A stretch of 64,000 nt of DNA from Candidatus Hydrogenedentota bacterium (GTDB lineage: Bacteria > Hydrogenedentota > Hydrogenedentia > Hydrogenedentales > SLHB01). Made by a program: the position numbers and the translations under genes. The notes beneath the pieces are model-generated. The model made no database searches and was not told where the DNA came from. It saw nothing but the letters and a program-made list of their open reading frames with translations. Positions 18,412 through 33,690 of the stretch are shown here, piece by piece. The first letter of the stretch is position 1; every line of letters starts with the position of its first letter. The stretch spans positions 1,184,001-1,248,000 of the forward strand of contig CAXXTH010000017.1 of the NCBI GenBank assembly GCA_963668025.2, read 5' to 3'.

Positions 18412-19650
18412 TTATACGGCCTGCCAGAGCGTACTGATCGGCAGCGCATGCAACGCCGGGCCAAACGACACCGCTTCCCGTCCGGTGTAGAGCACGATGC
18501 CGCATTTGAAGCGTTCGCCTAGCTCCTGCTGTAAGAACCGGAGCTGCTTGAAATCGTGGCTGCTGGCCGAAGCGGCGGCTTTCACTTCGATGGCTACGAT
18601 GCCGCCGCCGGGGCTTTCCAGTATCAAATCCACTTCCTGCCCCGTGAGCGCACGGAAATGGTACAGGCTCGGCTGCGTAGCGCTCCAGGAGGCTTGCTTC
18701 CGCAGTTCCACGGCCACGAAGCTCTCGAGCAACTGCCCCGCCAGTTCCCGGTCCTGGGTAAGCCGGGCGGGGTCCGCCCCGAGCAGATGAATGGCCAGGC
18801 CTGTATCACAAAGCATGGCTTTGGGCGATTTAGCCAGCCGCTTGCTCAGGTTAACAGACCATGCGGGCAGGAGCTGGACGAGGAATGTCGCCTCGAGCAG
18901 CGCCATGTAACGCTTGAGGGTCGTTTGCGGCATGCTGAGGCTGCGCGACAAGTCCGAGTAGTTCAGAAGTGTTGCGGTGCGCATCGCCAGTATCGCCAAC
19001 AGCCGGGGCATCTCGGCCATATGATCAATTTGGGCCAGATCGCGCACATCCCGCTGGAGAATGGCGGTGACGTAAGAGCTAAACCATGCCCGGCGGCGGG
19101 ACTGGTCCTTGCGCATATACGCCTCTGGATAACCGCCGCCCACCATCATGCCAATAAGATCCTGCATCGCGCACGGCTGCGCCGTTGGCCAGGATGCCTG
19201 CCCGGCAAACGCGCGGTCGATGAAGGTTTCACGCACCCCGTTGATTTCGCCTTGCGAAAAAGGCCATAGGGTGATGATTTCCATCCGCCCCGCCAGCGAT
19301 TCCGAAACCGTCGGCAGCATCATGATATCCGCGGAGCCGGTCAGCAAAAAACGGCCCGGCTGGCGGTTGCGGTCCACCTGGCTTTTGATGGCCACCAGCA
19401 AATCCGGCGCGCGTTGAATTTCATCCAACACCACGGGGCCTTGAAGGCCGTCAATGAATCCGGCGGGGTCACTGGCCACGGCGGATAGCACCGTATTGTC
19501 ATCCAAGGTGACGTACCGCATGCCCGGCGTATTCCCGGCCAATTCGCGCATGAGGGTGCTCTTCCCCGTTTGCCGTGCTCCGTGGAGGAGGATGACTGGG
19601 GTGTCCGCAAGGGCCGCCTGAATGGCGCTCTGGATATTACGCTGGATCAT
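18412..19650 (-). CDS. AAA_14 ATPase with DUF4143 and C-terminal PD-(D/E)XK-like domain
   Basis: GARQTGKST, LDEIQ, LTGS, ESLAGR, GGYP, DTGL, EVDL...AIEVK. Confidence 0.93.
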   Translation of the reverse strand: MIQRNIQSAIQAALADTPVILLHGARQTGKSTLMRELAGNTPGMRYVTLDDNTVLSAVASDPAGFIDGLQGPVVLDEIQRAPDLLVAIKSQVDRNRQPGRFLLTGSADIMMLPTVSESLAGRMEIITLWPFSQGEINGVRETFIDRAFAGQASWPTAQPCAMQDLIGMMVGGGYPEAYMRKDQSRRRAWFSSYVTAILQRDVRDLAQIDHMAEMPRLLAILAMRTATLLNYSDLSRSLSMPQTTLKRYMALLEATFLVQLLPAWSVNLSKRLAKSPKAMLCDTGLAIHLLGADPARLTQDRELAGQLLESFVAVELRKQASWSATQPSLYHFRALTGQEVDLILESPGGGIVAIEVKAAASASSHDFKQLRFLQQELGERFKCGIVLYTGREAVSFGPALHALPISTLWQAV

Positions 19651-19877: not shown

Positions 19878-20225
19878 ATGGAAGGGAAACCTGTCACGAA
19901 CTCGGCGGGACGCAAGGTCCAGGCGCGCCTGGCGCGTCTGGGGCCCTTTCTTCCCGCCACGCTCACCATCACCCGCAGCCGCTGCGGGAACCCGCGCTGC
20001 CGGTGCGTCCAGGAAGGGCCGATCCATGAAACGGCCCTGCTGACGTGGAAGGAGGGCGGGAAGACCCGCACCCTCCACGTGCCCCGTGAATTGCGCCGCG
20101 AAGTGGCGCAATGGATTGAGGAATGGAAAAAGCTCAAGAAGCTCGTCGAGGCCATGGGCGCGGCCCAACGGCAGTTCCTGCAAACCCGCAAGAAGAGCAT
20201 CCGGAAATCATCCGGGCCTTCTTGA
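19878..20225 (+). CDS. DUF6788-like IS accessory protein
   Basis: CGNPRCRC...H motif, LTWKEGGKTRTLHVP, basic C-terminal helix. Confidence 0.8.
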   Translation: MEGKPVTNSAGRKVQARLARLGPFLPATLTITRSRCGNPRCRCVQEGPIHETALLTWKEGGKTRTLHVPRELRREVAQWIEEWKKLKKLVEAMGAAQRQFLQTRKKSIRKSSGPS

Positions 20226-21559
20226 GGACGTTCACCCACTTCTTTGGCCCGGTGCGCAAGCGCTTTGCGGGCTTGCCCGATCCCCGCAAACCCGAGCAAG
20301 CCGGCGACGTGGACTACAGTGTCGCGTCGCTGGTGTTCTTGGGAGTGCTGATGTTCGCATGCCGGCTCGGGGCGCGCCGGCAAGTCCGCCTGCAGTTGTA
20401 CACGACGTTCATGGTCCATCTGTACAAGGTCTTGTTTGACGTGGACAGCGTGCCGCATGGCGATACGATGAACGGGGTATTTCGCGGTTTGCCGTTCGAG
20501 GCGGTCCAGGAACTCGTTTCCGGCATGACGCAGACGCTCATCGACAAGAAGGTGTTGTACCCCCACCGCCTGTTCGGGCGCTACTACGTGGCGGCCATCG
20601 ACGCCACGGGGACACGCAGTTATGATCATCGCCACTGCGCCCATTGCCTCACGCGCAAGCACAAGAGCGGCAAGATCACCTACTACCATCCCGTGCTGGA
20701 GTCCAAGATCGTCACGCCAAACGGGTGGGTCTTTTCGCTCATGACGGAGTTCATTGAGAATCCAGAGAAAGACCTGGCGAAAAGCGAGCAACAACGCAAG
20801 CAGGATTGCGAGACCAAAGCCTTCTACCGGCTGGCCCCACGCCTGCATGCCCGATTCCCCCGCTTGCCGCTGCTGTTGGCGATGGACGGCCTGTACGCCA
20901 CGGGACCGGTGTTTCGGCTGTGCCAGCAATATGGCTGGAAGTTCATGATTACGCTCACGGACGGCCAATTGGCCACCGTGAACGAAGAATTCGAGAGCCT
21001 CGCGGCCGCGACGCCCGAAAACCAGCTTACGTGGCGTTGCGGCAACAAGAAGGAAATCCACCAGCAGTTTCGCTGGGTCAACGACATCCCCTACCGCGAT
21101 TCCGAGCGGCGTGAACACATCCTGTCCGTGCTCGAATGCGTGGACACCCGCCCGGACGCGGAAGGCATGATAAAGAAAACCAAGTTCAAATGGGTGACCA
21201 ACGTATCCGTATCCGCGCACAATGCGGCCGCCTTGGCCAATGAAGGAGGACGCTTACGCTGGAAGATTGAAAATGAAGCATTCAACGTGCAGAAAAACGG
21301 CGGCTACAACCTCGAACACGCCTATACCCAAAACGAACAGGCCAGTAAGATCTACTACCTCTTGATGCAGATAGCCCATCTGCTCATGCAACTCCTGGAG
21401 GATGGCAGCCTTCTGGCCGCCCACTTTCCAAAAGGCTTTGGCTCCGCCAGAAACCTTGCCCATCGCCTCCTCGAAGCCCTGCGCAACGCCACCCTGTCCC
21501 GCGAACAATATGACGCCCTCTGCACCGAGGCCATCCAGATCCGCTTCAGTTCCGCGTAG
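20123..21559 (+). CDS. DDE transposase (ISAs1/IS4-like); start uncertain
   Basis: LPDPR, AIDATG, MDGLY, RWKIENEAFN.QK. Confidence 0.9.
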   Translation: MEKAQEARRGHGRGPTAVPANPQEEHPEIIRAFLRTFTHFFGPVRKRFAGLPDPRKPEQAGDVDYSVASLVFLGVLMFACRLGARRQVRLQLYTTFMVHLYKVLFDVDSVPHGDTMNGVFRGLPFEAVQELVSGMTQTLIDKKVLYPHRLFGRYYVAAIDATGTRSYDHRHCAHCLTRKHKSGKITYYHPVLESKIVTPNGWVFSLMTEFIENPEKDLAKSEQQRKQDCETKAFYRLAPRLHARFPRLPLLLAMDGLYATGPVFRLCQQYGWKFMITLTDGQLATVNEEFESLAAATPENQLTWRCGNKKEIHQQFRWVNDIPYRDSERREHILSVLECVDTRPDAEGMIKKTKFKWVTNVSVSAHNAAALANEGGRLRWKIENEAFNVQKNGGYNLEHAYTQNEQASKIYYLLMQIAHLLMQLLEDGSLLAAHFPKGFGSARNLAHRLLEALRNATLSREQYDALCTEAIQIRFSSA

Positions 21560-21911: not shown

Positions 21912-21966
21912 GTATGAATATCATCCACCAAGTGGATGATATTCAACCACTTGGTGGTTAATTTTC
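21912..21966 (-). promoter_or_regulatory. Second, diverged copy of the three-box palindrome array
   Basis: Colinear with 19651-19705 over 55 bp; contains a perfect 14-bp stem tgaatatcatccac/gtggatgatattca (21915-21945). Confidence 0.65.
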
Positions 21967-22212
21967 GTCTATTTCTGGCGGGCGGGCCTCCATGGGATGA
22001 TAAAATTCCGCCTCATGATCCGATAATATGCCGGACTTTATCCTCTGGCGTATTTCATCCATATAAGCGCCCTCCTGCTGTGGGCTTCCTTCAACACTTT
22101 GGATGCTGGGGGGCGCTTCTTCGCTTAAAAAAGCATGGGACAAGGAGAGGCCCACAAAGGCGGCAACGGACAAGGCCAATCCGATGAAGTATGCGGTATC
22201 ACGTATTCTCAT
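21958..22212 (-). CDS. Small membrane-anchored hypothetical protein, last gene of the amr operon
   Basis: MRIRDTAYFIG start overlaps the upstream stop; N-terminal TM; conserved-looking LSDHEAEFYHP tail. Confidence 0.65.
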   Translation of the reverse strand: MRIRDTAYFIGLALSVAAFVGLSLSHAFLSEEAPPSIQSVEGSPQQEGAYMDEIRQRIKSGILSDHEAEFYHPMEARPPEIDEN

Positions 22213-25200
22213 GGCGGCACCTATCGCAGCACAGGCAATCCAAGTCTGTGCCCTTCTCCACGCCGAGGTCGCAGGCGGGCGGCCGCACGGCGGGCCTCCA
22301 TACCCGCAGCATGCGTATGCCATTCAGAAACGCCAGAAAAGCCCCCGCTGGACAGAGATTGCGGCACCAAAAGCGCCGGTAAAAAAACGACAGCGCCACG
22401 GCTCCGCCCGCGAGCAGCCCTATTCCGTGCTCCCAGACGCCAGCGAATACGGTCAACAACGGGTCAGCGGCAAGCGCTGCGTAGTCTCGGGTAAAGGCGA
22501 ACAAGGCAATGACAAAGAGCAGCACCAGATACTTGACCGCGCGGCCGTAACGCCAGAGGCGTTTGGGCGGATCTGTTTGCAGGACGGCGGGACGCAACTC
22601 TCCCACTAATTCCTGCAAGGCCCCAAAGGGGCAGGCATAGCCGCAATAGACATTCCCGAAAAGCAGCACAAGCGCGGGCACGCCGATGGCCAGGAGGCAA
22701 GGGCCATCTAGATGGAATCCAGGCCATTCCAGCGCAAGCAACTGGAGCACTTGCTGCGTCGAATACTGCATATTCAGCCAGAGCCCGCCGAGTAGCAGGC
22801 TCGATAGGAGCACCACACGGCGCAGCCAAGGCCGGGGTTTGATGCGCGCCACAATACTGGCCAGCAGGAGCAGCGCCAGCAAGATAAAATCTTTGCCCGG
22901 CCGCCAGGTTCCCTTGTCCTCTTTTGTTTCGAGCGTGCGCCCCAATGCTGCCGCGAACAGGCGGCCTGCGCTTTCGATGCTATCCCGGATGGCGTTCGAT
23001 GAAAGGGTGGCGCCGCTTGCGGCGTCCACGCCAATGAAGGGATCCGGCGCAAAGATGTTGCGGCCCAGCAACTGTGTTTGCCACGATTCCGTCCTTTCGA
23101 GATAGGCGGGGGATTCGCGGGATTTCATGACGCGGCAGGCGTGCAGGACGCCTTCGGTGTCGGTAAAGACGGCGAGCTCGATGGGGCCAGCGTAGCCGGA
23201 AACACCCGGCGCAAGAGGAGCCGTGCTGAATACATAGCCTTCAAGCTGGCCTGCCGGGCCCAGCACGCGGAGATAGGGAAGGGTTTCTCCATTGGGCATG
23301 CGGGCTTGGGCGGTTTCCGGGGTGCGTTCTTTTCCCGCCAGCATAGGCACGATGCCAGGCGGCAGTGCGGGTGTGGTTGCGGCGCGCGCTTGCTCGACAA
23401 AATAGGAAGCCGTTAAGAGCATAACCGCCAATCCGGCTAATACATATTTCGTGGGCCGGGCGAGCCGTTCGAACGCGCCTTCTGCGGATGCGGGCCGGCG
23501 CCGTTCCATGAACCACGCCGCATTCGCGGCTAGGAGAAGCGCGATGGCTCCCGCAGTGGCATTCGCGCCAGCGGCCGGGAGCAGCAACAGGCTGGCGGCA
23601 GCGCCTCCCGCCGCGCCGCCCAAGGCGTCGAGGGCTTCGAGAAGCCCTCCCGCCATGGCGGCGGATTGCCCGGCTGTTTCCAGACGGTGCGCCGCGACGG
23701 GGAAATAAACGCCCGTGAATATCCCCCCCGCCAAAAAGAAAACCACGAAGAGGATATGCGGGGCTTGCATGGGCAGATAAAGGACGGATAAGAGCATCGC
23801 CGCGTGAAGGGGAAGGCAGATGGCTAGGAAAAGGCGGGGGCTAAGCCCGTGCTCCAGCAGGCGGCGCGCCAATAGGCTTCCAATAAAAATGCCACACATG
23901 AAAAGCGCGGAGATGAGTCCAATGTATAAAAATAAGGAGCCATGCTGGATTTGATAGAGAAACATCAGGAGTATGGAAAACGCCATGCCTGCAAAGCCTG
24001 TGGTGAATACCAGCATGCCATTGTCGAATGTTGCTACCCCGGGATTCTTGCCGGTTCGGAATCGATATCCGGCTCGTAGGACGCCATAGATGCATATGGC
24101 GGCCAAAAGGATTTTCATCGAGCATGCCCGCGCCACATCCGCCCATGCGCTGGGATTGGAAACACCCGCTTGGCGCAACACGAGGAGCATGGCGTCAAAC
24201 AAACAGGCGGGCTTCCGGTCCGTGTTTATAAGGGTTTCGCGCGCGCCTCGGGCTTCATAACTCGCAAGGACTGCGCGGTACGCGCCCAGTTGAAAATCTA
24301 TACGATCCCGGCGAAACAATGAAGGAATCCCCTGGACGGGATACAGGGCATTCGCGCCGGGAATGCGGGCGTAGTTGCGCCGCAAGCGGCCCGGCCTGTC
24401 CGCGAAATCTTGTCTGGACGCCATGAGCCATGTCTCGCCGCCAGGCTTGAGCGTGACATATGGAAATACGGATTCGAGCGTGGCCAAGGCCGACGCGCCG
24501 ATCACCTCCAGTTCGCCGCCTAGGTAATTCTCGCCTCCGGGAATGCGTAAAGACACTATTCCATTGGGCGTGAGGCGCGATAGGAGCAATGAAAAGCATT
24601 CCCGCGTGGCGTAGCGGTTGAGGGCGAGGGAAGCGGCATTGGGCAAATTCAACAGGATGAGATCGTAGGCCGGGCCATCTTGCGCCAAAAACGCGCGCAA
24701 ATCGCTGCTCTGTATATCCACGCGTGAAGCCCCGGCTTGAAAACGGGGCGGCAACGCTTGCATTAGCGCTTGCGGGTATTCCGGATCGGGGCATAGCCAC
24801 GTGGCGTGTTCGAGCTGCGGTATATCCAGCAGGCGCATGCATATGGACATCGAGCCTGCGCCAAAAACCAAGGCGTTCCGAATGCCGGGGCGCTGGGCTA
24901 GGTGGGCCGCCGCGATCGCTGAGGCGTGTTCTTCATCCGGCAGGGCCTCGGCCACGCTTCCATTGGCTACGACGACAAATTGCCCGTTTCGCTCGCCGTA
25001 GGCATATGCGGCTTGGGCGGTCGAAAATGTCCCGGCATATGCCGCGCCGGGGAGCATGCGCTCCCAGGCCAGGCGGTTCGACGCGTCCGCCCAGCGGCCT
25101 CCAACTCCCATGGCTAATAGCAGCAACAATAGCGCCGCCGGGAGTCCGTGCGCCCATCGCCTGCGCCACATGGAAGCCAAGCCGCTGGCTGCGGCTACGA

Positions 25201-25735
25201 CAAACATTCCCGCAAGCGCGATGGCCTCCGGGGCAGTGTGGTGCGCCAAAAGCAGCGTCACAACAACACCGGCAACCGCTCCGCCCAGGCTTTCAGCGAT
25301 ATACACCAGCGGAACCGCGCCTTTTTTCCCAGGAAGCCATTCGCATGCCGCAGTGAATAATGCGCCGGTGGCGAGGCTTACCGGAGCGCTGGCCAGCCAG
25401 GCGAGCAGCGCCATGCGGGTGAACGGGAAAACCTCGTAGGCTGCTGCGCCCGCGATTGCGCGGGCATGCATGAATAGATAGTACTGCGCGAGAAATGCGG
25501 GGATGTAGAGCAGCGAGGCCCATTCCAATTCCGCCGCCGCATACCGCCGCAAAGCAGCGATATGCCGCACCGCCATGGCCCCTGCCGACACCCAAAACAG
25601 CCACGCGCCAAAGTAGCAGCCAATGGCCAGCTCGTTTCCCTCGAACACCGGCAGAAATTGCCGGAACAGCAGCGTCTGCGCCAGTAATGCGAATAAGCCC
25701 AGGGCGAATACAAGGCTTAGCCGCGCATAATTCAT
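22199..25735 (-). CDS. Fusion: membrane spermidine-synthase-like region + FMN-binding domain + NosR/NirI-type 4Fe-4S membrane domain
   Basis: AQTLLFRQF..FEGNEL, YIAESLGG, YDLILLNLP; GYAGPI and DAASGATLSS; YCGYACPFGALQE, WCRNLCPAG, CLCCDRC. Confidence 0.85.
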   Translation of the reverse strand: MNYARLSLVFALGLFALLAQTLLFRQFLPVFEGNELAIGCYFGAWLFWVSAGAMAVRHIAALRRYAAAELEWASLLYIPAFLAQYYLFMHARAIAGAAAYEVFPFTRMALLAWLASAPVSLATGALFTAACEWLPGKKGAVPLVYIAESLGGAVAGVVVTLLLAHHTAPEAIALAGMFVVAAASGLASMWRRRWAHGLPAALLLLLLAMGVGGRWADASNRLAWERMLPGAAYAGTFSTAQAAYAYGERNGQFVVVANGSVAEALPDEEHASAIAAAHLAQRPGIRNALVFGAGSMSICMRLLDIPQLEHATWLCPDPEYPQALMQALPPRFQAGASRVDIQSSDLRAFLAQDGPAYDLILLNLPNAASLALNRYATRECFSLLLSRLTPNGIVSLRIPGGENYLGGELEVIGASALATLESVFPYVTLKPGGETWLMASRQDFADRPGRLRRNYARIPGANALYPVQGIPSLFRRDRIDFQLGAYRAVLASYEARGARETLINTDRKPACLFDAMLLVLRQAGVSNPSAWADVARACSMKILLAAICIYGVLRAGYRFRTGKNPGVATFDNGMLVFTTGFAGMAFSILLMFLYQIQHGSLFLYIGLISALFMCGIFIGSLLARRLLEHGLSPRLFLAICLPLHAAMLLSVLYLPMQAPHILFVVFFLAGGIFTGVYFPVAAHRLETAGQSAAMAGGLLEALDALGGAAGGAAASLLLLPAAGANATAGAIALLLAANAAWFMERRRPASAEGAFERLARPTKYVLAGLAVMLLTASYFVEQARAATTPALPPGIVPMLAGKERTPETAQARMPNGETLPYLRVLGPAGQLEGYVFSTAPLAPGVSGYAGPIELAVFTDTEGVLHACRVMKSRESPAYLERTESWQTQLLGRNIFAPDPFIGVDAASGATLSSNAIRDSIESAGRLFAAALGRTLETKEDKGTWRPGKDFILLALLLLASIVARIKPRPWLRRVVLLSSLLLGGLWLNMQYSTQQVLQLLALEWPGFHLDGPCLLAIGVPALVLLFGNVYCGYACPFGALQELVGELRPAVLQTDPPKRLWRYGRAVKYLVLLFVIALFAFTRDYAALAADPLLTVFAGVWEHGIGLLAGGAVALSFFYRRFWCRNLCPAGAFLAFLNGIRMLRVWRPAVRPPACDLGVEKGTDLDCLCCDRCRHENT

Positions 25736-27330
25736 GCGCCATGCTCTCCGAACACGATAGCTTCAAACACGGTGTACGATGCGCCTTCTTTCCAGGCATC
25801 GGAAGACAATCCCGCTTTCATCGAGAGATGGCTAAGGGTTTGCTCCAGCGTCCAGCCTTGCTCGGGGGCCACTTGGGGCAGAAACACGGCGCGGCGTCCA
25901 TCTTTGCTCAAGACCATGCCATGTTTCCCGATGATGATGTCTTGGTAAGACCCCACCGGACGCGGAGGAGTAAGGGCCGAAATCTCGATGTCCACCTTGG
26001 GCAATTCTTCCGTGGTAAGGGGCGAGAATCGCGGGTCGCTGAATGCGGCGTTGATGGCGTTGCCGATCACGGCCTCGAAGAGCGGCCGCCGTGGCTCGAT
26101 CTCGCCGATGCATCCCCGAAGCTGGCCGCGTTCGTGCAGGGTGACAAAGGCCCCCATGACTTGCCGCATGCCGGAGGCCACCGTCACGCCGAGTTCTTCC
26201 GCCGTGGGCTGTCCGTGATGCGTAAAGGCCCAATCAATGGTTTTCCGGGCCAGTTCGAGCAGGCTGCGTTTTTCATCCTCGGTTAATGCTGGCGTGTCAT
26301 GTGGTTCCACGGAATCGCCCCCTTTCTTGCTCCATTTCCCAGTTGCGGCTGCGCTGACATAACTGACCGAAAGAGTGTAATCGTTCGTAAGCTCTCCTGA
26401 CTTGCTATAGTGCAGTAAATGGACGGACGCATCGGCAGGCAGCATCTCCAGCAACACGCCAATGGGATTGCGCCCGCAAATCGTAGCCTCTTTCTCTTCC
26501 ACATACGACTGGAAACCGGCGGGGTCTTTTTTCTCGATAAACGCGAACGCGCCCATGTCCAGCGCTGTAATGTTTTCCGGGATATTCTCCGTGAACGGAG
26601 TATAGCCGTAGTTTGCGCCATAGTGTGTAAAATCGCTGCTGGCGATGACAAGCGTGCGTTCATCGATAAGGCCGGCGAGGGTTTCCGCCATGGCCTGGCT
26701 GGTTTTCGCATTCAGTTCGCCTACGATAACCGGCACGAGCTTGAAAGCGCCCAGCGTACGCTGTAACAACGGCAATTCGATCTGCACGCTATGCTCGCCG
26801 CGGCAAGCCGCTGGTTCGCTGATGAATTCGGGATGCTGTTTGAGCGCCACGATGAATTCCACATCCAGGGGAATTTCACCCAAAGGCGTTTCGTATGCGG
26901 TGGCGTCTGGCACGCCAGCCTGGTTGGTGAGGGCCGCGTGGTGCGATGGCCCCATGACGACGACGCGCGCATACGATTTGCCAGCGATTTGCTTGACGCC
27001 ATACGCCGCTGTTTGGCCCGAATAGGCATATCCGGCATGGGGCAAAATCAGGGCGATCACATCCGGATACGTTTCATCAGGAGTCTTCGCCAGAAAGCCA
27101 TCTATCTGTTCTTTCAGCGCTTCTGGCTCCTTTGGATACCATTTGCCCGCCAGCGTGGACGCCGCCACGCACGGTGCTGGCGCGGCTGGCTTTTCAACGG
27201 CTTCATCCTGGCCTGCCTGCGCCGTTTTCCCATGGGCTCGCAGCAAGGGGATGGCCGCCACGGAGGCCGCCAGCAGTAAAATCAAGAATCCTAGGGTTAA
27301 CGCCGGGGCCAGCCACTGTTTCTTGCTCAT
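25732..27330 (-). CDS. amrB: AmmeMemoRadiSam protein B (MEMO1) - protein A (AMMECR1) fusion with N-terminal signal/TM
   Basis: AGKWYP, PHAGYAYSG, GPSH, EHS, SSDFTHYG, TICG; then GAFVTL...LRGCIG, DPRF, FLPQV. Confidence 0.93.
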   Translation of the reverse strand: MSKKQWLAPALTLGFLILLLAASVAAIPLLRAHGKTAQAGQDEAVEKPAAPAPCVAASTLAGKWYPKEPEALKEQIDGFLAKTPDETYPDVIALILPHAGYAYSGQTAAYGVKQIAGKSYARVVVMGPSHHAALTNQAGVPDATAYETPLGEIPLDVEFIVALKQHPEFISEPAACRGEHSVQIELPLLQRTLGAFKLVPVIVGELNAKTSQAMAETLAGLIDERTLVIASSDFTHYGANYGYTPFTENIPENITALDMGAFAFIEKKDPAGFQSYVEEKEATICGRNPIGVLLEMLPADASVHLLHYSKSGELTNDYTLSVSYVSAAATGKWSKKGGDSVEPHDTPALTEDEKRSLLELARKTIDWAFTHHGQPTAEELGVTVASGMRQVMGAFVTLHERGQLRGCIGEIEPRRPLFEAVIGNAINAAFSDPRFSPLTTEELPKVDIEISALTPPRPVGSYQDIIIGKHGMVLSKDGRRAVFLPQVAPEQGWTLEQTLSHLSMKAGLSSDAWKEGASYTVFEAIVFGEHGA

Positions 27331-27334
27331 CGCA

Positions 27335-27544
27335 TCACCCTTTCCATGGGCCGGGCGTGTTTATCTTTTCACGGTCGAGACGCGCCACGCGCCCGGGATA
27401 TGGTTTTCCACGCACGGCCTCTATCCAGTGCATTCGGGCCGTGTTTGCATATACCGCCAGCGGCGCAGATAGCGCCGCTGCCGCGCATGCGCCAAGCGCC
27501 GTGCGCAGGAAACAGCGCCGGGGCATATCCCATTTTATGTCCAT
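27335..27544 (-). CDS. Small twin-arginine-signal hypothetical protein (69 aa)
   Basis: MDIKWDMPRRCFLRTALGACAAAALSAPLA; fills the gap between amrS and amrB exactly. Confidence 0.6.
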   Translation of the reverse strand: MDIKWDMPRRCFLRTALGACAAAALSAPLAVYANTARMHWIEAVRGKPYPGRVARLDREKINTPGPWKG

Positions 27545-28515
27545 ATGCCGTGGATCTCCGCATTGCAGCCCGGGCAGCGCCCGTTCCGCACTTCGTTGCG
27601 CAAAATCGAGAAGCCTTTCCGTTCGATGAGCAGCATGCCACATGCGGGGCAATGGGTGTTCTCCCCGCTGGGACTCAGCACGTTGCCGATATAAACATAC
27701 TGCATCCCTTCACCGCGTGCGATATTTCGGGCGCGTTCGAGGGTCTCGGTGGGCGTGGGTGGCAGATGTTGCATCTGGTACTGGGGGAAAAACCGGGAAA
27801 AATGCAGGGGGGTGTCCACCCCAAGGTTCCGTGCGTGCCACCGGCACAAATCGCGCAAATCCGCATCGCTGTCATTGAGCGTGGGAATGACAAGGTTCGT
27901 CACCTCCACCCAAATGCCCAATTCCTTCGATTGCACCAAAGCGTCCTGCACGGGCTTCAACGTCGCGCCGCATATCGTGCGGTAGAAATCGTCGCGTATG
28001 CTCTTCAGGTCAATGTTCGCCGCATCCGTAACCCGCCCGATGCGCGCCAATGGCTCGGGATTGATATAGCCCGCCGTCACCAGCACATTTTTTAGTCCTG
28101 CTTTGCGGGCTGCCAGCGAGCAATCATATGCGTATTCGTAATACGCAATAGGGTCCGTATATGTATAGGCAATGGACAGGCAGCCATTCTCTACTGCAAG
28201 CTGCGCGGCCTCCACTGGCGAAAGGGCTTTGGCTTCCAAATCTTCCGGATTCGCCTGGGATATCTCCCAGTTTTGGCAGTTCTTGCAATGCAGATTGCAG
28301 CCCACGGTAGCCAGCGAAAAAATGGAGGTGCCCGGCAGGAAATGGAATAGCGGTTTTTTCTCGACGGGATCTACATGAACGGCGCACGGGTGGCCATAGG
28401 TGGCCGCCACGAGCCGCCCATCCATATTGAAACGAATCCGGCACTCGCCTCGCTGTCCGGGCCCAATGACGCAGCCTTTTGGGCATAAATCACATTGCAA
28501 GTCCATGATGCACAC
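27535..28515 (-). CDS. amrS: AmmeMemoRadiSam radical SAM enzyme
   Basis: CDLCP..C, DPVEKKPLFHF.PG, GCNLHCKNCQNWEISQ, PLHFSRFFP, YVYIGN, CPAC. Confidence 0.95.
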   Translation of the reverse strand: MCIMDLQCDLCPKGCVIGPGQRGECRIRFNMDGRLVAATYGHPCAVHVDPVEKKPLFHFLPGTSIFSLATVGCNLHCKNCQNWEISQANPEDLEAKALSPVEAAQLAVENGCLSIAYTYTDPIAYYEYAYDCSLAARKAGLKNVLVTAGYINPEPLARIGRVTDAANIDLKSIRDDFYRTICGATLKPVQDALVQSKELGIWVEVTNLVIPTLNDSDADLRDLCRWHARNLGVDTPLHFSRFFPQYQMQHLPPTPTETLERARNIARGEGMQYVYIGNVLSPSGENTHCPACGMLLIERKGFSILRNEVRNGRCPGCNAEIHGIWT

Positions 28516-28684: not shown

Positions 28685-29599
28685 TTGTCTTCAATCGATA
28701 CAGTGGATCTGGCGCAATACGATTTCCTGGATTTCGGCTCATCGAAGGGGGCTTCGACGGATTTCGCCCAGCATCATCTCGGGGGCAAGCGCGGCCTTGG
28801 CCTCGATTTTGATCCGCGCAAGGTCGAAGAAGCCACGCAAGAAGGCTATGAATGCGTCTGCACCAATCTGATCGAGGTGGATTTGCCCGAAAAATGCGTG
28901 GACTTCGTGATAGTGAACCACCTCCTCGAGCATTTACACAGCATCCCGCAAATCCGCAAAGTGATCGAAAACGCGCTGCGCTCCGCCCGAAATTTCGTGT
29001 TTATCGGCGGGCCATGGTTCGACGCGGACGAGTATCTGAGCAGCCTGGGCTTCAAATTCTACTGGTCCGACTGGCATCACCACCGCGTGCATGTGACGTG
29101 CGAACTGCTAACACGCCTGTTTCGGCAATTGGGCGTGAAGGACTACGCCTTTCTCGGAAGCGAGCGCATTTACGATTCCATGCATTCGACCATCCACCCG
29201 TTTGAAGCCCCGCCGAACCAGCATCATTACAAAGAAGCGCATGGATTCAAACCCTACATGCGGTTTTCGAAGCCATTGTTTCGCGAGATGATGTGCCTGG
29301 TGTATTTGCAGGATTTTCCAGGCAGGGAAGGGCTGTTGACCATGGCGGATGGCGTGTGTCCGATTCAGCCGCTGTTCGAGGAGCGCCTCAACCATGAGCA
29401 CCTCTATACAAAGGATGACATCATCAATGATCAAATTGTTCTTTCTTGGATGCTCCGCGAGCGTCTCGAAAAAGAACGCTTAAAAAATGAATTGCTCGCC
29501 AAAGGGATTCCCGTACAAGAAGAGGATGTGGCGAATACGCCTACGCGGCTCACTCGGTTTTTGGATTTCTTCCGCAAACAGGCCCGCAACGGCGGATAG
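28685..29599 (+). CDS. Class I SAM-dependent methyltransferase
   Basis: FLDFGSSKG, GLDFD, HLLEHL; TTG start. Confidence 0.8.
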   Translation: MSSIDTVDLAQYDFLDFGSSKGASTDFAQHHLGGKRGLGLDFDPRKVEEATQEGYECVCTNLIEVDLPEKCVDFVIVNHLLEHLHSIPQIRKVIENALRSARNFVFIGGPWFDADEYLSSLGFKFYWSDWHHHRVHVTCELLTRLFRQLGVKDYAFLGSERIYDSMHSTIHPFEAPPNQHHYKEAHGFKPYMRFSKPLFREMMCLVYLQDFPGREGLLTMADGVCPIQPLFEERLNHEHLYTKDDIINDQIVLSWMLRERLEKERLKNELLAKGIPVQEEDVANTPTRLTRFLDFFRKQARNGG

Positions 29600-29614
29600 G
29601 AGCTTGGCGGCCAT

Positions 29615-30499
29615 ATGCCGAACCTCGGAAACGAAGCGGATATGCGCCCTTGTCCCGAAAACGCCCCTCTCGTCTCGGTCATTCTCACCAGTTACAATCA
29701 TGAGCCTTATATCGCGGAAGCTATCCGGAGCGTTTTTGCACAGAGCTACCGGCCCATGGAGCTTGTCGTCGTGGATGATGGCTCGAAAGACGGCTCGCGC
29801 GGCGTAATCGAAGAGGTGTTGCGCGATGCGCCCATTCCCGCCACGCCAGTATTCAAAGAAAACGGCGGGCAGGCCAGCGCCTACAACGCCGCCTGGCCCC
29901 ATGCCAGGGGAAGCCTGGTCTGTTTTATTGACAGTGATGATGTGTGGCTGCCGGACAAGGTGGAACGCATGGTTTCCTTCTGGCGGGAACACCCGGGCGG
30001 GGCGCTCTATCAACACCAGGTGCTCGTGGGCGGCGGGGTGAGCCGGCATGAATTGGTTTCCGGCGATATGCTCGCCTATTGGAGCCAATATGGCGGCGTG
30101 CTCAACATCGCTACACACGGCAGCCTCATGAAGCGGTTCGTGCCGTCGGTAGGGCTCATGTTCCCAAAGGCTATATTGGAGCGCCTGTTCCCCATGCCCG
30201 AAACGCTGGTGGTCTGCCCCGATGGCTACCTCACGCGCACGGCCTGCGCCTTGGGGCCGCTCTATTCGCTCGACACGCCATTGGCGCGCTGGCGCGATCA
30301 TGAGCGGAACTCGGGAAAGGCTTCCTGCTTCAGCTTCTACCGGTACTGGCTGCCGGTGGTCATGCCCGCCGTCAATGCGTTCTACGAAGCCCATGATGTG
30401 CCGCTGCGCTTTGTATACGACACATCCTCGTGGCATGCCAAACTATGCGATTGGGCCACCCGCTGGCGGCAATGGAAACGACAATGGCTGCGAAAATAA
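29615..30499 (+). CDS. Glycosyltransferase family 2
   Basis: VSVILTSYN, VVDDGSKD, NGGQASAYN, FIDSDD. Confidence 0.93.
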   Translation: MPNLGNEADMRPCPENAPLVSVILTSYNHEPYIAEAIRSVFAQSYRPMELVVVDDGSKDGSRGVIEEVLRDAPIPATPVFKENGGQASAYNAAWPHARGSLVCFIDSDDVWLPDKVERMVSFWREHPGGALYQHQVLVGGGVSRHELVSGDMLAYWSQYGGVLNIATHGSLMKRFVPSVGLMFPKAILERLFPMPETLVVCPDGYLTRTACALGPLYSLDTPLARWRDHERNSGKASCFSFYRYWLPVVMPAVNAFYEAHDVPLRFVYDTSSWHAKLCDWATRWRQWKRQWLRK

Positions 30500-31999: not shown

Positions 32000-33690
32000 C
32001 CTAAAAAAGGCAGTAAGAGCTTGCTTTGGGATTTTTCCGGCCCAATTTTGTAAAGAAATAACTGTCCTGGCCCGCTCTTTACGTTGGCGCCGACAGCAGG
32101 TTGGGGGTGGCCAGCGGCCTTCCCTCGAGTATTTTGGCGAAGATCCGGCTGAGGATCGTCCGCCATCGTTCGTTCCAGTTCAACTGCCGCGCAGTTGCTT
32201 TCACCTCCAATAAAAAGGCGTTTACGGATTTCAGAACTTGTTCCATAGCATGTCCTTGCGCATGCACGGGGGTGATGGTGAGCGTGGTTTGGCCTCCGTG
32301 GCGGGTCTGCTGTCCCACACCATACAGCAGCAGAGGGCGGCTTGTGATCGCTTCGGCGTGGCGCTCCGGAATGGCCAAGCGCACGTACAAAGACCACCAA
32401 TTGTAAATCAGGGCTATGATTCGCGCCATGATTTGGCAGCGCTTCATATCGTGGGTGGTATACCCGCCCCACCCCCACTGGTTTTTCTGTTCATCGTAGA
32501 TGTTTTCCGCATCGCCCCGGTCGCGATAATGCTGGGCCAAGGCCGATAGGGGGTCTGTCAGCGAAGTGGCCAGCAGCGCGTATTCATACTGCTGCACGGC
32601 TCCCGCTTGGATCTCAATGAGCTGTAGTTGGGGGGAGGGGTCAGGCAATAGCGGCTCCGTTTCCAGAACGATACTCCCTTTGAGCTTGCGCCGCAGAACG
32701 ATTATCCGGCGTTTGCTCGTCCATCCCATAAGCTCCAGACGGTCTTCCAAACCTTCCCAGCCTTGGCCTGCTGGCGTCCAGTCCTTAGAACAAAAGGCCT
32801 GCTGGATAAGCCGTTTCACGTTGCTGGTCTGCCGCAATTTGAACAGATAGGGCACTCCGCGCGCTTCGGCTTCGCTCATGTCGCGTTCGTTGCCGAAGGC
32901 GCAGTCGCCGCGAATCATGCCCGGCCAGGCCGCGCGCGGCAAGCCATCGAGAAAATGCCACAATCCAGGCATGGTGTATTTCGCCGCCGTCTCGTTGCCC
33001 GGCCGGACTTCCACGTCCAGCACCAAGCGCGTGTTCGCCATAAAATAGGTATGCAGCACATGAGAAGGACGGCCCTGTTTCGCCGGATTGTAGCCCAGCA
33101 CGGCCCCTTCTTGATGGCCGAACAGGGGCTTCACGCTTGTATCCACGTCCAAAATCCAAGGCTCATAAAGCAACGGCTCATAACAGCGGCGCAGGTGCTT
33201 CTGTAGCCAGCCCGCGCAGGCTTCCCCGTCCGCCAGTATAAATGCCCGCCGCGCCGAGGAGGCGCTCATGATCTTGCTCATACCCAGCAAGCCCGGGTTC
33301 ACCGCGTCGTAACGGACCGCGTCAATGTGCGCATAGCGGGTGTGGCCCGCCAGCACTGATAAAAATAGCGTGCCCAGCACATCCCTCTTGCGCGGCGCAT
33401 TATTGCTGGCGTACGCCAGCGGACAGTCCTCCACCCACGCTTCAAAAAGCTCCGCCGTCTTGAGGAAATCGATAAAGAACGCCAACTGGCCAAACGGCGT
33501 CGTTGCCGCCTCCCGGTCCCATTCCACATGCACCCGGCCCCCGTAGCTATCTACGAAAATCGGCGCCTCCAAAGACAACCATTCCTCCTCTCCCAATGGG
33601 GGAGCATCTTGCTGTTGCGATTCTGTTTCCATGTTCTTTATCTTGAACTACTTCCTGCTCGACACTCAAGATTCAACTGGCGTTTTTAGG
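32000..33690 (-). mobile_element. IS1380-family element, copy 1 (1691 bp)
   Basis: Ends CCTAAAAAAGGCAGT / ACTGGCGTTTTTAGG; 5-bp TSD TTGTA (31995-31999, 33691-33695). Confidence 0.93.
32079..33632 (-). CDS. IS1380-family transposase
   Basis: ILDVDTS..PLFGHQEGA..GYNP, IRGDCAFG, YRDRGDAEN.YDE.KN. Confidence 0.92.
   Translation of the reverse strand: METESQQQDAPPLGEEEWLSLEAPIFVDSYGGRVHVEWDREAATTPFGQLAFFIDFLKTAELFEAWVEDCPLAYASNNAPRKRDVLGTLFLSVLAGHTRYAHIDAVRYDAVNPGLLGMSKIMSASSARRAFILADGEACAGWLQKHLRRCYEPLLYEPWILDVDTSVKPLFGHQEGAVLGYNPAKQGRPSHVLHTYFMANTRLVLDVEVRPGNETAAKYTMPGLWHFLDGLPRAAWPGMIRGDCAFGNERDMSEAEARGVPYLFKLRQTSNVKRLIQQAFCSKDWTPAGQGWEGLEDRLELMGWTSKRRIIVLRRKLKGSIVLETEPLLPDPSPQLQLIEIQAGAVQQYEYALLATSLTDPLSALAQHYRDRGDAENIYDEQKNQWGWGGYTTHDMKRCQIMARIIALIYNWWSLYVRLAIPERHAEAITSRPLLLYGVGQQTRHGGQTTLTITPVHAQGHAMEQVLKSVNAFLLEVKATARQLNWNERWRTILSRIFAKILEGRPLATPNLLSAPT

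Follow-up and report, generated by a model that had tools for sequence, protein, structure and literature searches.

A 64,000-nucleotide stretch of a Candidatus Hydrogenedentota genome (the window; positions 1,184,001 to 1,248,000 of contig CAXXTH010000017.1, assembly GCA_963668025.2) carries on its minus strand, at 21958–28515, five genes with overlapping or abutting ends. In order they encode AmrS, the radical S-adenosylmethionine (SAM) enzyme of the AmmeMemoRadiSam set; a small protein with a twin-arginine (RR) signal; a fusion of AmrB and AmrA, the Memo and AMMECR1 proteins of the set; an 1178-residue membrane fusion protein; and an anchored protein of 84 residues. The five genes are one conserved, translationally coupled unit, and because the same order recurs in dozens of genomes of different phyla, the recurrence of the gene set is far above chance. 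We lean towards reading the operon as an extracytoplasmic version of AmmeMemoRadiSam that is assembled on the large protein with its 20 membrane helices. On balance, we also think it probable that AmrS is piloted by the RR peptide through the twin-arginine translocation (Tat) pathway, docks on the membrane fusion and is reduced via its flavin mononucleotide (FMN). A preliminary description of the same DNA had listed the five genes, and all were found on the minus strand with the features it gave them. The end it assigned to amrS, 28515, corresponds to an upstream GTG; the gene itself stands, and we prefer the ATG at 28506 as its start.

One sign of export comes from AmrB and AmrA, which are encoded by one fused gene, one gene away from amrS. 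The fusion matches the Memo and AMMECR1 models of Pfam with 208 and 175 bits and the NCBIfam models TIGR04336 and TIGR04335 with 213.9 bits (cut-off 26) and 171.1 bits (cut-off 99). It keeps the catalytic motifs PHAGY, GPSH, EHS, SDFTHY, CG and LRGCIG, and PHAG, H98, H130, E179/S181, S231/D233/H236 and G406/C407 are invariant. In the window the protein starts with MSKKQW and about 24 hydrophobic residues (hydrophobic residues 5–34), a leader that looks like a signal or signal-anchor (residues 1–34); with either, the catalytic domains would lie outside. A hydrophobic 12-mer was found upstream of the Memo core in 30 of the 31 evaluable homologues, window included, and the single miss, L033, is an artefact of the anchor pattern, its leader being visible in the sequence. 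Lipobox-like motifs ending in Cys (e.g., LTISGC, LPAC, IQGC, AVSGC) are present in 10 of the 31, and other leaders are Sec-like (e.g., SLA/GE, SFA/QE). The N-terminal signal or transmembrane (TM) segment seen in the preliminary description is thus a family-wide leader, often an unambiguous lipoprotein signal, and AmrB-AmrA is predicted to be exported via a Sec or lipoprotein-type leader throughout the family. Elsewhere in the genome we found three further Memo-family genes (C14:136176-136958, C4:6187-7017 and C23:53230-54087); the only AMMECR1 gene is the one in this operon.

AmrS exceeds the cut-off of TIGR04337 (389.5 bits against 220), and its CX3CX2C cluster motif (C70/C74/C77) has cysteines that are invariant in 21 sequences. 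The match starts only at model position 12: the window AmrS begins directly at the Cys-rich core ‘QCDLCP’ and is without the N-terminal ‘EA.FY’ segment (model positions 1–11). In canonical and Tat-signal-bearing proteins, the segment just before this core reads ‘[RKH]EA.[FYW][YW]..L’. A HMMER search with the window AmrS gave 7765 proteins at E ≤ 0.001, of which the best 150 representatives were examined. The core was recognisable in 114 of these; an EA.[FY]Y-like motif stood just upstream in 54 of the 114 (38 by the strict pattern), and only 3 of the 114, all 58–68% identical to the window AmrS, started right at the core. In the AlphaFold2 model of a canonical AmrS (pLDDT, the predicted local distance difference test score, 95.4), the first 10 residues have a mean pLDDT of 95 and form strands at 3–4 and 8–10; because these strands are confidently modelled, the N-terminal segment is, as far as the model tells, part of the canonical AmrS fold. 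No solved structure related to AmrS by sequence was found at E ≤ 1e-5.

Signal peptides were absent from AmrS in all 33 homologous loci, and many relatives of AmrS have a Tat signal of their own. Among the best 150 representatives, 29 had an N-terminal extension of 35–110 residues, and in 22 of the 29 an RR-type motif lay within the first 35 residues. The Tat signals on AmrS relatives, 23 of which were read, include textbook examples such as MSTTRRRFLAAAAG, SRRDFIKKLL, NRREFLGNLAFG and MTRRDFLGAV. Within the phylum of the window, the AmrS proteins of loci L127, L129 and L131 carry K-R Tat-like signals of their own (TKRGFLK, TKRSFLK and SKRDFLK) and are encoded directly downstream of an 818-residue membrane spermidine synthase that corresponds to residues 9–734 of the large protein. 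In L127 (4375–7993) the two genes overlap and the synthase has the full catalytic motif VDGPDP (GGG ... VDGPDP). Neither AmrB-AmrA nor the NapH module occurs near these two-gene units. Since relatives including those of L127, L129 and L131 carry Tat signals in cis, the radical SAM enzyme itself is, judging from these leaders, the exported entity in related systems; gene order likewise keeps the membrane spermidine-synthase module next to AmrS in units that lack both AmrB-AmrA and the NapH part. The genome has a second AmrS (contig C10:1184921-1185907; locus L005 7916–8995, minus strand) of the cytoplasmic type with 264 bits, an orphan beside a small Rieske protein and NAD synthase and unrelated to this operon; AmrS proteins of this lower-scoring class (about 250–290 bits) occur in most genomes of the phylum. 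The nearest other families, the glycyl-radical activases, all match the window AmrS far below their cut-offs, and an assignment to the glycyl-radical enzyme activases (PflA relatives) was rejected, TIGR02493 giving 41.7 bits against a cut-off of 231.75 and others less.

In place of a signal on AmrS, the operon has the RR protein of 69 residues. It begins MDIKWDMPRRCFL / MDIKWDMPRRCFLRTALGACAAAALSAPLAVYA and contains the twin-arginine consensus with a hydrophobic region, MPRRCFLRTALGACAAAALSAPLAVYA; the mature peptide of about 36 residues has an invariant YPG and a C-terminal W-x-G, and in the family of 21 sequences G22 (in YPG), W38 and the terminal G40 are invariant. Of 30 loci, 28 have an open reading frame (ORF) with the RR motif placed between amrS and amrBA. 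Its ATG overlaps the amrS stop in the window, and in 13 of 21 loci the overlap has the form ATGA. TatC is encoded in the genome (212 bits). Complex prediction, named as a check in the preliminary description, was run on AmrS with the last 40 residues of the RR peptide, in three runs and with three controls. Binding was predicted with scores of 0.75, 0.73 and 0.75, the best control reaching 0.00; the partner had a pLDDT of 72–74, and the runs shared at least 95% of contacts. The mark applied to these scores was passed in 116 of 157 cases for solved complexes and in 2 of 215 for mismatched pairs; these figures are approximate since our own alignments were used. The predicted interface comprises peptide residues 9–40 and, on AmrS, the N-terminal sheet (25–52) and residues around the cluster motif. 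The models support binding of AmrS by the RR peptide, and together with the gene arrangement they make a Tat pilot, and small subunit, for the signal-less AmrS the most likely role of the peptide. The RR proteins of L046 and L051 have READFY or READYY as their own C-terminus, and would there amount to a Tat signal and the first strand of AmrS supplied in trans. An assignment to the ‘formate dehydrogenase region TAT target’ family was rejected, as the RR protein had no NCBIfam or Pfam match at E ≤ 0.01.

With 272 homologues at E ≤ 0.001, the large protein belongs to a populous family that has no name; most of the 120 listed were full-length with 39–48% identity. It matches Fer4_5 (PF12801; 55 bits) and FMN_bind (PF04205; 33.2 bits). 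Family-averaged hydropathy and counts of lysine and arginine (K+R) fit a model of 7+8+5 helices in which every K+R-rich loop is inside. In this model seven helices, starting from an N-terminus that is inside, are followed by a domain of 320 residues outside, eight more helices, the FMN_bind domain outside and five NapH-like helices; both CxxxCP motifs, at cytoplasmic helix ends, and the C-terminal Cys4 tail are inside. The AlphaFold2 (AF2) model of the protein (mean pLDDT 86.8; predicted TM-score, pTM, 0.84) has the same helices, the first set running from H2-30 through H194-208 and the second set comprising 528–560, 565–598, 604–628, 633–653, 660–687, 692–722, 724–742 and 754–785. As it resolves 692–722 and 724–742 as two helices, eight lie between the soluble domain and FMN_bind; because this number is even, the two soluble domains would be on the same side, and both the spermidine-synthase fold and the FMN domain are predicted to face outward.

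The first of these domains is, in the AF2 model, a complete aminopropyltransferase (spermidine-synthase) fold, with target-normalised TM-scores (TMt) in Foldseek of 0.61–0.69 over 263–306 columns to 1uir, 3anx, 7xif, 6bq2 and others; at the sequence level it matches 3anx/1uir weakly (E 0.0026). GxG and D317 are retained, and the catalytic DxxD is replaced by N-L-P-N in the window and N-L-P-D in the consensus, ‘LLNLPNA’ being aligned to ‘IIDLTDP’. The protein was accordingly rejected as a spermidine synthase (PRK03612 28.7 against a cut-off of 472, NF037959 27.5 against 40, catalytic D-x-x-D-P absent). The eight-helix domain at 534–785 resembles the major facilitator superfamily (MFS) or the membrane domain of membrane-bound spermidine synthases, MFS_1 and PRK03612 matching below their cut-offs.

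The redox end of the protein holds the two motifs pointed out in the preliminary description. DAASGATLSS was located at 22997–23026; in its DAASGAT part G908, A909 and T910 (the last at 23006–23008) are invariant in 23 homologues. According to Meheust et al. 2021 (PMC8238504), ApbE flavinylates FMN_bind domains that carry this motif, and does so outside the cytoplasm. The genome encodes two ApbE proteins (297.8 and 137 bits), one with a lipoprotein signal, and with the invariant threonine this makes T910 a predicted flavinylation site, as the preliminary description had it. The lipoprotein ApbE (L003 76–2433; leader LLVLTAGC) is encoded directly after an NqrF-like gene and is probably part of an Nqr operon. 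The NosR/NirI-type CxxxCP motifs of the preliminary description (C1031/C1035/P1036 and C1124/C1128/P1129) are both invariant in the 23 homologues; of the C-terminal Cys4 residues (C1155, C1167, C1170, C1173), C1155 is invariant and the other three are present in at least 90%. NosR, NapH and MauN models match the five-TM module far below their cut-offs, and NosR was rejected as an assignment for the large protein, NF046105 giving 68.3 bits against a cut-off of 1000 over residues 951–1143 only.

The last gene of the operon encodes 84 residues with the N-terminus inside and a tail that ends in ‘G.LSDHEAEFY’ and resembles the canonical AmrS N-terminal segment. Its family of 13 sequences conserves one helix followed by ‘G.PR.VD...IR..I..G.LSDHEA.FY’, and many Planctomycetota, as well as L024, have the piece as a C-terminal extension of the large protein. 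The 84-residue family was compared with AmrS by hhalign, as support only; its motif aligns with the N-terminus of AmrS, in the register that would be expected (E 0.0064 over 12 columns), and with residues 701–731 of P0137 (E 0.015 over 31 columns). By these alignments, the 84-residue protein would carry the N-terminal segment that is absent from the window AmrS, and we propose it as a docking strand.

Natural fusions are the decisive pieces for the docking argument. In P0137 a single chain contains DsbD_2, FMN_bind, a NapH-like part, the Cys motif, a TM helix, ‘LSMREALYW’ and AmrS; in P0132 and P0135 single chains contain FMN_bind, a NapH-like part, one extra TM helix and AmrS. P0135 and P0137 have 6 hydrophobic segments between FMN_bind and AmrS, and P0132 has 5 at threshold and one sub-threshold CxxxCP helix. 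Because six hydrophobic segments separate them, AmrS and FMN_bind would be on the same side, so that by parity AmrS in the fusions lies on the FMN side. Because P0137, P0132 and P0135 join the parts in one chain, the large protein, the 84-residue protein and AmrS of the window are, on this comparison of domain orders, these fusions split into three genes. AmrS was further found in P0121, P0129 and P0137 behind a membrane domain of the DsbD_2 (CcdA-like) kind, another type of conduit that brings reductant across the membrane, behind a CBM_11-like carbohydrate-binding domain in P0126 and behind beta-propeller (Reg_prop/PorZ-like) domains in P0144, the last two kinds being typical of secreted or surface proteins.

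To see how far the genes travel together, we scanned up to 8 kb of DNA on each side of the large-protein gene in one genome per species, keeping 80 loci, of which 39 had a full-length relative of the large protein. At least one amr gene was near the large protein in 33 of the 39 full-length loci and all three were in 27, usually in the order amrS, small ORF, amrBA, large gene. By their record titles, the loci come from Planctomycetota, Hydrogenedentota, Nitrospirota, Kiritimatiellia, Desulfomonilaceae, Sedimenticola and a tubeworm endosymbiont, and the same order with overlapping stop and start codons is found in records of Planctomycetota, Hydrogenedentota, Nitrospirota, Kiritimatiellia, Desulfobacterota and Gammaproteobacteria; in the window, the amrBA and large-fusion genes overlap by 4 bases. 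Within the phylum of the window AmrS is present in 111 and the large protein in 43 of 135 genomes, and, reading the two tables together, an amrS of the window type lies a few kb from the large protein on one contig in 31 of the 43. The linkage, which the preliminary description had proposed to survey, is conserved by both counts. The distribution of the large protein in the phylum is patchy, with an occurrence in 21 of 66 genera. When all ORFs of at least 60 residues in 41 loci were clustered, no further conserved neighbour emerged, the only recurring cluster (8 loci) consisting of generic histidine kinase and response regulator proteins.

These observations can be arranged into a mechanism. 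AmrS, which has no signal and needs cytoplasmic iron–sulfur (Fe-S) assembly, would fold and receive its clusters in the cytoplasm and would there bind the co-translated RR peptide. By analogy with known Tat ‘hitchhiker’ pairs, the two could then cross the membrane piggy-back through Tat. Once outside, AmrS may dock on the outward tail of the 84-residue protein, which would supply the ‘EA.FY’ segment in trans and put AmrS beside the FMN domain. Electrons from the cytoplasm or the quinol pool would pass via the Fe-S cysteines to the covalent FMN and on to the [4Fe-4S] cluster of AmrS, with FMN in the role that flavodoxin plays in the cytoplasm, and AmrS, AmrB and AmrA would act together on an envelope substrate. 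The SAM might already be bound to AmrS when the enzyme passes through Tat and then serve as a regenerated cofactor, which is how lysine 2,3-aminomutase uses it. More speculatively, the outward domain with its SAM or decarboxylated SAM (dcSAM) fold and the transporter-like membrane domains could supply or handle SAM. The picture in full would be that of a whole radical SAM system on the outer face of the membrane, with a trans-encoded Tat pilot of about 36 residues, an anchored tail as the missing strand, a flavinylated domain in place of flavodoxin, and SAM or dcSAM from an outward spermidine-synthase-fold domain fed by transporter-like domains; in all these details together, we regard it as quite possible but somewhat short of probable. 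As to the envelope location proposed in the preliminary description, the computational results support it: the AmrB-AmrA domains come out as extracytoplasmic, the FMN domain as a flavinylation target and the linkage as conserved, each the opposite of an outcome that the preliminary description had named as contrary to its reading. The putative job of the system, according to that description, would be to mature cofactors or metalloproteins or to modify small molecules.

Several points weigh against the extracytoplasmic reading. Of the full-length loci, 6 of the 39 (L035, L042, L043, L045, L062 and L071) have no amr gene in the examined DNA, and in L035, L042, L043 and L045 this DNA covered 8 kb upstream; in L024, amrBA is missing from a locus that does contain amrS, the RR gene and the gene for the large protein. 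The 84-residue tail gives hhalign matches that are short and statistically weak (E 0.0064–0.093, probability 0.6–6%). The fusion P0139, a Memo-AMMECR1-AmrS chain, has a Sec-like rather than a Tat-like leader, and it is difficult to see how a folded Fe-S domain would be exported in this way. The predicted interface with the RR peptide includes cluster-flanking residues and barrel-strand ends (64, 66, 78–79, 113–116, 143, 164) where a substrate would be expected, and the complex prediction is compatible alike with a pilot or subunit and with a substrate. The topology depends on helix parity, so that an error of one in the helix count would turn the spermidine-synthase fold to the inside. The operon itself has no ApbE gene, and localisation, flavinylation and binding are all predicted. 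Finally, we know of no radical SAM enzyme that works outside the cytoplasm, nor of SAM being available there.

AmrS might instead stay in the cytoplasm. The RR peptide could then be its substrate or product carrier, modified at the glycine of YPG or at W-x-G and exported by Tat afterwards; the modified peptide would work with, or be processed by, periplasmic AmrB-AmrA using electrons from the FMN domain, in a route to a peptide-derived cofactor or one like that of ribosomally synthesized and post-translationally modified peptides (RiPPs). Reportedly, QhpD/QhpC of quinohemoprotein amine dehydrogenase provide a precedent for modification inside followed by export. Binding of the peptide to AmrS (0.75 versus 0.00) at an interface that touches the cluster-motif face would fit such a role, the invariant G22, W38 and terminal G40 recall cofactor-precursor peptides, the nearest other families of AmrS are the glycyl-radical activases, if far below cut-offs, and the need for SAM outside the cell is sidestepped. 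The Tat signals on AmrS itself, in 22 of the 29 N-extended representatives and in L127, L129 and L131, argue instead for the enzyme as cargo. In the single-chain fusions the extra TM helix after the NapH-like module would bring AmrS to the FMN side, the segment absent from AmrS sits on an outward tail, and the mature peptide is engaged almost end to end (9–40), more like a subunit than a leader-plus-core substrate. We consider modification of the peptide inside the cell unlikely, though it is the alternative to which we give most weight.

A cytoplasmic AmrS could also be docked on the Fe-S end of the large protein, with the conduit linking the redox chemistry of periplasmic AmrB-AmrA to the radical SAM cluster and electrons flowing either way. 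The substrate would then be a membrane lipid, a quinone or an isoprenoid that can be reached from either side, and the RR peptide would be a small subunit of its own in the periplasm. As the CxxxCP and Cys4 motifs point into the cytoplasm, the geometry allows for an Fe-S partner there; the membrane protein that carries the system is very large, and Memo contexts have reportedly been linked to isoprenoid modification. The RR peptide, however, is predicted to bind AmrS and is translationally coupled to amrS, AmrS relatives have Tat signals in cis, an extra TM helix precedes AmrS in the fusions, and the N-terminal motif of AmrS is found on an outward tail, and this arrangement seems to us rather improbable. 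The large fusion might, finally, be an independent envelope redox or polyamine module whose adjacency to the amr genes reflects shared regulation or a mobile cassette. The 6 full-length homologues without an amr gene, the transposase genes that flank the region at 20123–21559 and 32079–33632 and the presence in just 21 of 66 genera of the phylum would be in keeping with this. It is very hard to reconcile with the same gene order with overlapping stop and start codons across several phyla, with natural fusions that join AmrS to FMN_bind and NapH-like modules in one polypeptide, and with membrane spermidine-synthase genes that overlap Tat-signal amrS genes in two-gene units, and we give it very little credence. 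Between these alternatives, an AmrS exported with the RR peptide and docked on the membrane fusion is the reading that we retain.

Compared with canonical AmmeMemoRadiSam, in which the three proteins are described by TIGR04335 (AmrA), TIGR04336 (AmrB) and TIGR04337 (AmrS), the operon exceeds all three models, has the genes adjacent and keeps the catalytic motifs. It differs in that AmrB-AmrA is fused and has an export signal, that AmrS is without the ‘EA.FY’ segment, and that three extra conserved genes encode the RR peptide, the redox fusion with its 20 TM helices and the anchored tail; proteins of the canonical type (e.g., P0160, and L121-L126 in the same phylum) have no signals. The RR peptide and AmrS are like Tat hitchhiker pairs, where a folded protein without a signal leaves the cytoplasm together with a subunit that has one, as in the small and large subunits of hydrogenase or DmsA/DmsB: an RR-signal protein is coupled to, and predicted to bind, a signal-less Fe-S enzyme in a genome with TatC. 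Here, in contrast, the signal bearer continues for only some 36 residues beyond its signal and is itself without a cofactor, and the proposed cargo is a radical SAM enzyme. With the membrane-bound or ‘fused MFS/spermidine synthase’ proteins (NF037959, PRK03612) the large protein shares multi-helix domains flanking a spermidine-synthase fold; unlike them it scores below the cut-offs, has N-L-P-N for DxxD, is predicted to have the fold facing outward and is fused to a redox conduit. Relatives without the NapH part, such as that of L127, have the full GGG ... VDGPDP catalytic motifs. NosR carries a C-terminal double-ferredoxin domain, whereas there is one Cys4 motif here.

The redox end is closest to the NapH-like, ApbE-flavinylated conduits (NosR, PceC/RdhC and the ‘NapH-like systems’), with which it shares FMN_bind with [S/T]GA[S/T] followed by a PF12801 module with two CxxxCP. 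Meheust et al. 2021 (PMC8238504) propose that the NapH-like module carries electrons across the membrane to modular partners, and the operon fits the definition of a NapH-like system given there, having a PF12801 protein with N-terminal FMN_bind and the motif and ApbE in the genome. Its partner, however, is the set of radical SAM, Memo and AMMECR1 proteins and not a respiratory reductase or oxidase, and its module is fused behind 15 further helices and a spermidine-synthase fold. The main text of Meheust et al. 2021 (PMC8238504) does not mention AMMECR1, Memo, radical SAM or spermidine, and AMMECR1 or Memo terms were not found in those of its supplementary files that were searched. Our literature search found no description of an exported AmmeMemoRadiSam or a periplasmic radical SAM enzyme, though Burroughs et al. 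2019 (JBC) may list related contexts, and the titles listed for AMMECR1 since 2018 included no prokaryotic biochemistry. What appears to be new here, from sequence and structural models, are the family-wide export signals of AmrB-AmrA, the conserved RR peptide predicted to bind AmrS, the Tat signals on AmrS, the split N-terminal segment and an outward spermidine-synthase fold.

Coordinates of the operon and its parts in the window (positions 1 to 64,000).
Feature	Position	Strand	Basis
amrS, AmmeMemoRadiSam radical SAM enzyme, 323 aa	27535..28506	-	TIGR04337
Small twin-arginine (RR) protein, 69 aa	27335..27541	-	MPRRCFLR signal and ~36-aa mature part
AmrB-AmrA (Memo-AMMECR1) fusion, 532 aa	25732..27330	-	Pfam and NCBIfam matches
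Large fusion, 1178 aa	22199..25735	-	Fer4_5 and FMN_bind matches
Large fusion residues 1-211, seven TM helices, N-terminus inside	25103..25735	-	Hydropathy, K+R counts, AF2
Large fusion residues 212-533, spermidine-synthase fold, predicted extracytoplasmic	24137..25102	-	PDB sequence matches, Foldseek, topology parity
Large fusion residues 534-785, eight TM helices	23381..24136	-	AF2; weak MFS_1 and PRK03612 matches
Large fusion residues 786-947, predicted extracytoplasmic FMN_bind domain	22895..23380	-	PF04205, motif
Large fusion residues 948-1178, NapH/NosR-like five-TM module and C-terminal Cys4	22199..22894	-	PF12801, invariant cysteines, topology
84-aa protein, one TM helix and acidic outward tail	21958..22212	-	13-sequence family alignment, fusions
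Terminator-like hairpin, 14 pairs and T-rich tail, closing the operon	21915..21945	-	Sequence

The transposase genes on the two sides of the operon region are of the DDE type (20123–21559, plus strand; 32079–33632, minus strand), and a DUF4143/AAA_14 ATPase gene (18412–19650, minus strand) also flanks it. The closest relative of the large protein within the same taxonomic family shares just 49% identity with it, and the locus may have been acquired or rearranged. Divergent from amrS and just upstream of it, a class I methyltransferase and a family-2 glycosyltransferase are encoded at 28685–30499 (plus strand), a pair that the neighbour clustering of 41 loci did not find conserved beside the operon elsewhere.

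Radical SAM enzymes make up one of the largest superfamilies of enzymes. To our knowledge they are treated as strictly cytoplasmic, since they depend on SAM, on a low-potential reductant and on Fe-S assembly. If the reading given here is true, the operon would contain the first radical SAM chemistry known outside the cytoplasm, with its own electron conduit, breaking the cytoplasm-only rule and showing how cells provision such chemistry there. The split design, with a pilot peptide that has the Tat signal and a membrane anchor that has the first strand of the enzyme, would be new Tat biology. As far as we know, the human homologues of both Memo and AMMECR1 have been connected with disease, and no substrate is known for either protein; the trio with the radical SAM protein is said to be usually presumed to act on nucleic acids. 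The operon would move the chemistry of Memo and AMMECR1 to an envelope substrate and offers a concrete handle on the two proteins, as their ties to the envelope, to a flavin and Fe-S conduit and to a SAM-fold domain narrow the search for what they act on.

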